DNA from: Escherichia phage EC128
DNA length: 64,000 nucleotides
Sequence record: ON210139.1
Direction: 5' to 3' (one strand)
The notes beneath the pieces are model-generated. The model did no database searches. It saw nothing but the letters and a program-made list of their open reading frames with translations, and had not been told where the DNA came from. Every line of letters starts with the position of its first letter. Position 1 is the first letter of the stretch. Shown here piece by piece: positions 34,142 to 34,838 of this stretch. The position numbers and the translations under genes were made by a program.

Positions 34142-34383
34142 TGTCTGAACAAACTATTGAACAAAAACTGTCTGCTGAAATCGTAACTCTGAAGTCTCGT
34201 ATCCTTGATACGCAGGACCAAGCGGCTCGTCTGATGGAAGAATCCAAAATTCTGCAAGGAACTTTGGCTGAAATTGCTCGCGCAGTAGGTATCACTGGCG
34301 ATACCATCAAAGTTGAAGAAATCGTTGAAGCTGTCAAGAATCTTACTGCTGAATCTGCTGATGAAGCAAAAGATGAAGAATAA
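34141..34383 (+). CDS. 57A: Tail fibre assembly chaperone gp57A
   Basis: 80 aa coiled-coil [26 protein letters not shown]; T4 position and length. Confidence 0.9.
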
Positions 34384-34838
34384 TGGAATTTAAAGACTTT
34401 TCAACGGGTCTTTATGTAGCAGCTAAGTTTTCAGAATTAACACTTGATGCGCTGGAAGAACTTCAGCGCTCTTTACGTGTTCCTAATCCAGTTCCTAGAG
34501 AAAAAATTCATTCAACTATATGTTATTCGAGAGTAAATGTTCCATATGTTCCATCGAGTGGAAGTTTTGAAGTAGCTTCTTCTGGACATTTAGAAGTATG
34601 GAAAACACAAGATGGATCGACTCTTGTACTTGTGCTAGATTCTGAATATCTGCGTTGTCGACACATGTATGCGCGGGCACTAGGTGCTACACATGATTTT
34701 GATGATTACACACCGCATATAACATTGTCTTATAATGTTGGACCCTTATCATTTAGCGGTGATGTACAAATTCCGGTCGTACTTGACCGTGAATACAAAG
34801 AGCCTCTTAAACTCGATTGGGCAGATGATTTAAAATAA
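34383..34838 (+). CDS. 57B: 2H-phosphoesterase gp57B (anti-CBASS Acb1-like)
   Basis: 151 aa ORF with two H-x-T/S motifs (HSTI, HITL) typical of 2H phosphoesterases; T4 gp57B is the described Acb1 cyclic-nucleotide phosphodiesterase (established knowledge). Confidence 0.8.

Follow-up and report, generated by a model that had tools for sequence, protein, structure and literature searches.

Gene 57B of the T4-like Escherichia phage EC128 very probably encodes the known anti-CBASS phosphodiesterase Acb1

It is very probable that the open reading frame (ORF) following gene 57A in Escherichia phage EC128 is the acb1 gene (57B) of a T4-like phage, and that its product is a 2H-fold phosphodiesterase that cleaves the signals of CBASS. 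The sequence analysed here (sequence record ON210139.1; hereafter the window) is a stretch of 64,000 nucleotides, which was assigned to Tequatrovirus and whose DNA is ~96-99% identical to that of many Escherichia, Shigella and Yersinia T4-like phages. A preliminary description of this DNA had placed gp57B at 34383-34838, and we found an intact 151-codon frame on the + strand at exactly these positions. The name was right as well, since the gene lies directly after 57A and ahead of ipI as in T4, and T4 gp57B and the product of this gene are one and the same protein. The coordinates of acb1 and of related features are listed in Table 1.

Alignment with the T4 genome (NC_000866) revealed 100% identity over all 151 residues between the window protein and residues 2-152 of T4 gp57B/Acb1 (NP_049750.1). 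At the DNA level, 8 of 459 nucleotides differ from T4, including seven inside the ORF that are all synonymous. The eighth difference turns the 57A stop codon TGA of T4 into TAA and removes the extra in-frame upstream ATG present in T4. T4 57B is annotated as starting one codon earlier than the window gene and has one extra N-terminal Met (ATGATG in T4, ATAATG in the window); residue numbers in the window equal those of T4 minus one. Two minus-strand ORFs located inside acb1 (34516..34680 and 34523..34666) were rejected as spurious, since all substitutions relative to T4 are synonymous in the + frame. As judged by its sequence, the Acb1 of EC128 is a protein already described, identical to the one on which the Acb1 family was founded.

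Table 1. Positions of acb1, its motifs and related genes and signals in the 64,000-nucleotide window of Escherichia phage EC128
Feature	Position	Strand	Basis and remarks
Gene 1 (dNMP kinase)	33428..34141	+	T4-equivalent ATG at 33428; listed ORF starts at upstream TTG 33389
T4 late-promoter-like TATAAATA	33778..33785	+	Inside gene 1, ~360 nt upstream of 57A; consensus match only
57A, tail-fibre assembly chaperone; probable upstream partner in transcription unit	34141..34383	+	Pfam GP57, 170.8 bits; 98.75% identical to T4 gp57A
TAATG, overlap of 57A stop and 57B start	34381..34385	+	T4 equivalent is TGATG with extra in-frame ATG
acb1 (gene 57B) CDS	34383..34838	+	ATG start; 151 aa, with stop codon inside the end coordinate (ORF listing)
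First catalytic H-x-T motif, H43-S-T45 (T4 H44/T46)	34509..34517	+	Read from sequence; invariance in alignment
Second catalytic H-x-T motif, H112-I-T114 (T4 H113/T115)	34716..34724	+	Read from sequence; invariance in alignment
C-terminal lid segment, residues 144-151 (T4 145-152), with W146	34812..34835	+	Identical to T4; putative lid role by homology
ipI, internal protein I	34911..35198	+	Pfam IPI_T4 'nuclease inhibitor', 177 bits; 98.9% identical to T4; directly downstream of acb1
Acb2 (T4 Vs.4 homologue), cyclic-nucleotide sponge	44878..45144	+	Pfam Acb2_Tad1_hairpin, 69 bits; T4-equivalent ATG at 44878

Searches of several databases gave consistent results. PF23474 (Acb1) was the single significant Pfam family for the 57B product, and residues 8-149 matched the profile over its entire length (1-144 of 144) with 202.7 bits (E 2.6e-60; the cutoff of this family is 27 bits). 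The best PDB match was Acb1 of Erwinia phage FBB1 (7T26/7T27; E 4.1e-62, residues 8-148, 68% identity). When 50,697 phage records were searched by tblastn, homologues were detected in 1470 of them; 498 were at least 99% identical, and phage T6 reached 100%.

The paired H-x-T/S motifs to which the preliminary description had drawn attention are present, and there are exactly two of them (H43-S-T45 and H112-I-T114). At least two H-x-[TS] motifs were also carried by 17% of shuffles of the window Acb1 residues; the pair was dropped as stand-alone evidence for Acb1 on this account, and the identification rests on homology. Window Acb1 was aligned with the FBB1 chain (68% identity) and with eight homologues that range from 80% to 30% identity and come from other members of the Straboviridae and from a Salicola jumbo phage. 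H43, T45, H112 and T114 were invariant throughout this 10-sequence alignment, down to 30% identity, and correspond to the HxT/HxT tetrad of Acb1 (H44, T46, H113 and T115 in T4). In the published work, Acb1 stacks nucleobases on Y12, W74, F107 and W147 and reads adenine N6 by E141 (PMC9117128); these ligand-contacting residues are found in the window protein as Y11, W73, F106, W146 and E140, respectively.

The crystallised FBB1 Acb1 (7T26, apo; 7T27, with 3'3'-cGAMP) shares the HxT/HxT tetrad, the adenine-reading Glu and the C-terminal Trp with the window protein. The two differ by one single-residue indel, and at the stacking positions W73 and F106 of the window protein the aligned FBB1 chain has F and Y, with an aromatic residue retained in each case. 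Based on 68% identity over 141 residues to 7T26/7T27, we infer that window Acb1 adopts a compact fold of the 2H phosphoesterase type, with a lid at the C-terminus, the lid function having been ascribed to residues 145-152 of FBB1 Acb1 (PMC9117128). Nothing in the sequence speaks against the assignment to Acb1.

The function of this protein has been characterized in T4, where gp57B was found via activity-guided fractionation for cGAMP cleavage and named Acb1 (Hobbs et al. 2022, Nature 605:522, PMC9117128). Acb1 was described as an enzyme of the 2H-phosphoesterase fold that has an HxT/HxT tetrad and degrades the cyclic di- and trinucleotides of CBASS; the tetrad makes a metal-independent acid-base cut 3' of adenosine via a cyclic-phosphate intermediate (PMC9117128). 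The catalytic role of the residues of the first H-x-T motif was demonstrated for T4/FBB1 Acb1, and the H44A/H113A double mutant was catalytically dead (PMC9117128). Substrates need at least one adenosine as well as 3'-5' linkages, and cGG, 3'2'-cGAMP and cA4 were uncut (PMC9117128). In infected cells, cGAMP-cleaving activity starts ~15 min into T4 infection; lysates of T4 Δacb1 lose this activity, and the deletion phage shows a >300-fold CBASS-dependent replication defect (PMC9117128). An independent transposon screen on a CBASS host also placed 57B among the conditionally required genes (bioRxiv 10.1101/2025.11.20.689424).

The preliminary description had equated 57B with the T4 Acb1 that degrades cyclic immune signals, and had proposed cleavage assays with the purified protein and plating of a deletion phage on CBASS hosts. 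The former claim is well founded, considering that the protein is identical, that the catalytic and ligand residues are all in place and that the biochemistry has been reported; both of the proposed tests have already been published for exactly the same protein sequence (PMC9117128). The substrates, the mechanism and the in vivo anti-CBASS effect attributed to the EC128 protein would thus be those given in the literature for a T4 protein of identical sequence, and a functional difference between window Acb1 and T4 Acb1 is not expected from this identity.

In the mechanism proposed for EC128, a small metal-independent phosphodiesterase of the 2H fold would take CBASS signals, in the form of 3'-5'-linked cyclic di- or trinucleotides with at least one adenosine, into a U-shaped pocket that is shut by the C-terminal lid. 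Acid-base catalysis by the H43/T45/H112/T114 tetrad would cleave them 3' of adenosine, with a 2',3'-cyclic phosphate as the intermediate. Once the signal is linearised, the CBASS effectors would never be activated and the infected cell would be spared abortive death. acb1 is predicted to be expressed together with the tail-fibre chaperone gene 57A in the middle/late phase, at the onset of CBASS signalling.

A second anti-CBASS gene was identified in the window. It encodes Acb2, whose listed ORF extends to a TTG at 44842 and which has two residue differences from T4 Vs.4 (E13N and C50Y). Acb2/Vs.4 has the same pathway target as Acb1, namely the removal of CBASS signals, but it is an unrelated protein and acts by sequestration of the signals, not by their cleavage. 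Because Acb2 is also encoded, the anti-CBASS capacity of EC128 does not lie with Acb1 alone. The earlier suggestion that this phage counters signalling-based host defence is a reasonable one, given the T4-identical Acb1 and the reinforcement by Acb2/Vs.4. It comes with two qualifiers: Acb1 has a defined substrate range, and it can itself trigger Panoptes guard systems.

Panoptes guards of types I and II have been reported to restrict Tevenvirinae phages whose Acb1 is functional, and in escapers acb1 is inactivated (PMC13577387). Bas43 is a natural relative with a disrupted acb1 under Panoptes pressure (PMC13577387). We also observed a broken copy in a close relative of EC128, phage BYEP02 (OR757454.1; 601..1133 of the locus). 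Here a 77-nt tandem duplication brings a premature TAG stop into acb1, downstream of the first HxT motif, and divides the gene into two annotated ORFs. This break could be a natural inactivation in line with Panoptes escape, or an assembly artefact.

There is one alternative way of reading the gene, in which either Acb1 has a second physiological substrate (such as the type III CRISPR signal cA3 or RNA 2',3'-cyclic-phosphate ends), or Acb1 and Acb2 together make the phage a target of Panoptes. We regard it as very unlikely. Neither part is specific to the window, and published work on close relatives already covers the cA3 activity as well as the Panoptes liability.

Many database entries describe 57B in terms of RNA metabolism. 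The corresponding PHROGs family (phrog_755) is labelled 'RNA ligase', and many GenBank records say 'RNA ligase' or 'RNA 2',3'-cyclic phosphodiesterase', as if the product were a 2H-superfamily enzyme with a general action on RNA ends (a LigT-like 2'-5' RNA ligase or RNA 2',3'-cyclic phosphodiesterase), perhaps serving tRNA repair and not the degradation of immune signals. Such a role is very unlikely. The labels reflect automatic transfer of the superfamily name, and the identical T4 protein was isolated by its cGAMP cleavage, an activity that is gone in T4 Δacb1 lysates (PMC9117128). Although a faint match to Pfam 2_5_RNA_ligase2 (PF13563; E 0.11) was detected, it covers residues 80-122 only and, at 13 bits, stays far below the cutoff of 27, whereas the Acb1 profile is matched at full length with 202.7 bits. 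Similarly, a tRNA cluster lies ~1.4 kb downstream of acb1, but this proximity is not conserved, and other genes are found downstream in Krischvirus, Aeromonas and Vibrio relatives. A search of NCBIfam with window Acb1 matched no model, and with the Pfam match below threshold, membership in the LigT/2'-5' RNA ligase family (PF13563) was rejected. Cellular 2H phosphoesterases (LigT, PF13563) share with Acb1 the paired catalytic H-x-T/S motifs and also the 2H fold, the latter as judged from homology to 7T26. However, Acb1 is smaller than LigT-type enzymes, carries a lid and has a pocket whose shape suits cyclic di- and trinucleotides, and its targets are immune signals, not RNA ends (PMC9117128).

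The identification as acb1 was further examined in its genomic context. The window runs in the orientation opposite to the T4 map, and the gene order is 4, 2, 3, 1 (dNMP kinase), 57A, 57B, ipI, trna.4/.3/.2 and the tRNA cluster. Proteins of this neighbourhood are 96-100% identical to those of T4, with the exception of trna.3 (56%). T4 57B has the same neighbours as the window gene (1 and 57A upstream, ipI downstream), and the intergenic sequences are near-identical. Gene 1 has 237 codons in the window and 241 in T4, which differ by a 4-codon indel at 97% identity. The order 3-1-57A-57B is kept in T4 as well as in Serratia, Krischvirus, Aeromonas, Acinetobacter, Cronobacter, Vibrio and Klebsiella relatives (at least six Straboviridae lineages besides T4). 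Adjacency to 57A is the typical context and not a strict requirement, as the acb1 homologue of the Salicola phage sits elsewhere.

An overlap of 57A and 57B by 1 or 4 nt is annotated in other T4-like phages, such as Klebsiella JD18, Serratia Muldoon and phages of Aeromonas, Acinetobacter and Vibrio, and this arrangement suggests a conserved translational coupling of the two genes. The stretch immediately before the 57B ATG lacks a strong Shine-Dalgarno sequence, and for this reason 57B translation is probably coupled to that of 57A. Both the expression and the translational coupling of acb1 in EC128 are inferred.

With regard to transcription, the octamer TATAAATA inside gene 1 resembles a T4 late promoter, and the same octamer is found at the equivalent place inside T4 gene 1. 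It may serve as the promoter of 57A-57B. Expression of T4 57B/acb1 and of Acb2 has been reported as middle/late (bioRxiv 10.64898/2026.03.30.715471), and the late-promoter match fits both this timing of 57B and the ~15 min onset of cGAMP cleavage (PMC9117128). A scan for sigma-70 promoters and terminators around acb1 yielded 11 sites versus 11.1 expected from shuffles, a result that is uninformative for a T4-type phage with its own middle/late promoters.

Between 57B and ipI, we also observed a 13-bp hairpin (34861..34890, + strand; -14.8 kcal/mol, z -2.2). It overlaps a promoter-like TTTACA-17-TACTAT, and an identical hexamer pair is located at 35218..35246, upstream of trna.4. Compared with T4, one stem pair of this hairpin is changed from G-C to G-U, and the pairing is kept. 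The gene that follows, ipI, encodes internal protein I. IPI* inhibits the type IV restriction enzyme GmrS/GmrD, and acb1 and ipI therefore represent two adjoining anti-defence genes.

Finally, it is extremely unlikely that acb1 contributes nothing in EC128 as a passively inherited gene of the T4 core region, either unexpressed or made redundant by Acb2: T4 Δacb1 does grow normally without CBASS (PMC9117128), relatives with a broken acb1 exist in nature (Bas43, PMC13577387; BYEP02, deposited sequence) and the window does encode Acb2, but the ORF is intact, its seven differences from T4 are all synonymous and therefore point to purifying selection on acb1, and the flanking sequences, at the junction with 57A upstream and in the intergenic region downstream, are near-identical to those of T4, in which the gene is expressed and needed on CBASS hosts.

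With acb1 identified as above, EC128 pairs a characterised broad-spectrum anti-CBASS phosphodiesterase with the Acb2 sponge. The phage is predicted to plate well on many CBASS hosts that use 3'-5'-linked, adenosine-containing signals, and to be sensitive to Panoptes guards that sense cyclic-nucleotide depletion. The value of the present result is one of annotation only: many records still say 'RNA ligase' or 'hypothetical protein', so correct naming is useful.

Several other features were observed in the window. The trna.3 homologue (35453..35842, + strand) is 56% identical to T4 Trna.3, while its neighbours trna.4 and trna.2 show 100% and 96% identity, respectively; no Pfam match was found for its product, and the gene appears from these comparisons to be a local mosaic or hypervariable one. 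The tRNA cluster (36230..37580, + strand) comprises eight tRNAs, namely those for Gln, Leu, Gly, Pro, Ser, Thr, a tRNA with a CAU anticodon (Ile in the T4 annotation) and Arg. As in T4, tRNA-Arg is preceded by an inserted segB gene, which encodes a homing endonuclease 96.8% identical to T4 SegB (36835..37497). At the position of T4 Tk.4, a macro-domain protein is encoded (46827..47306, + strand; Pfam Macro, 33 bits). A group I catalytic intron was detected close to where the window ends (63306..63537, + strand; Rfam RF00028, 98.2 bits), at the location of the nrdD intron on the T4 map.
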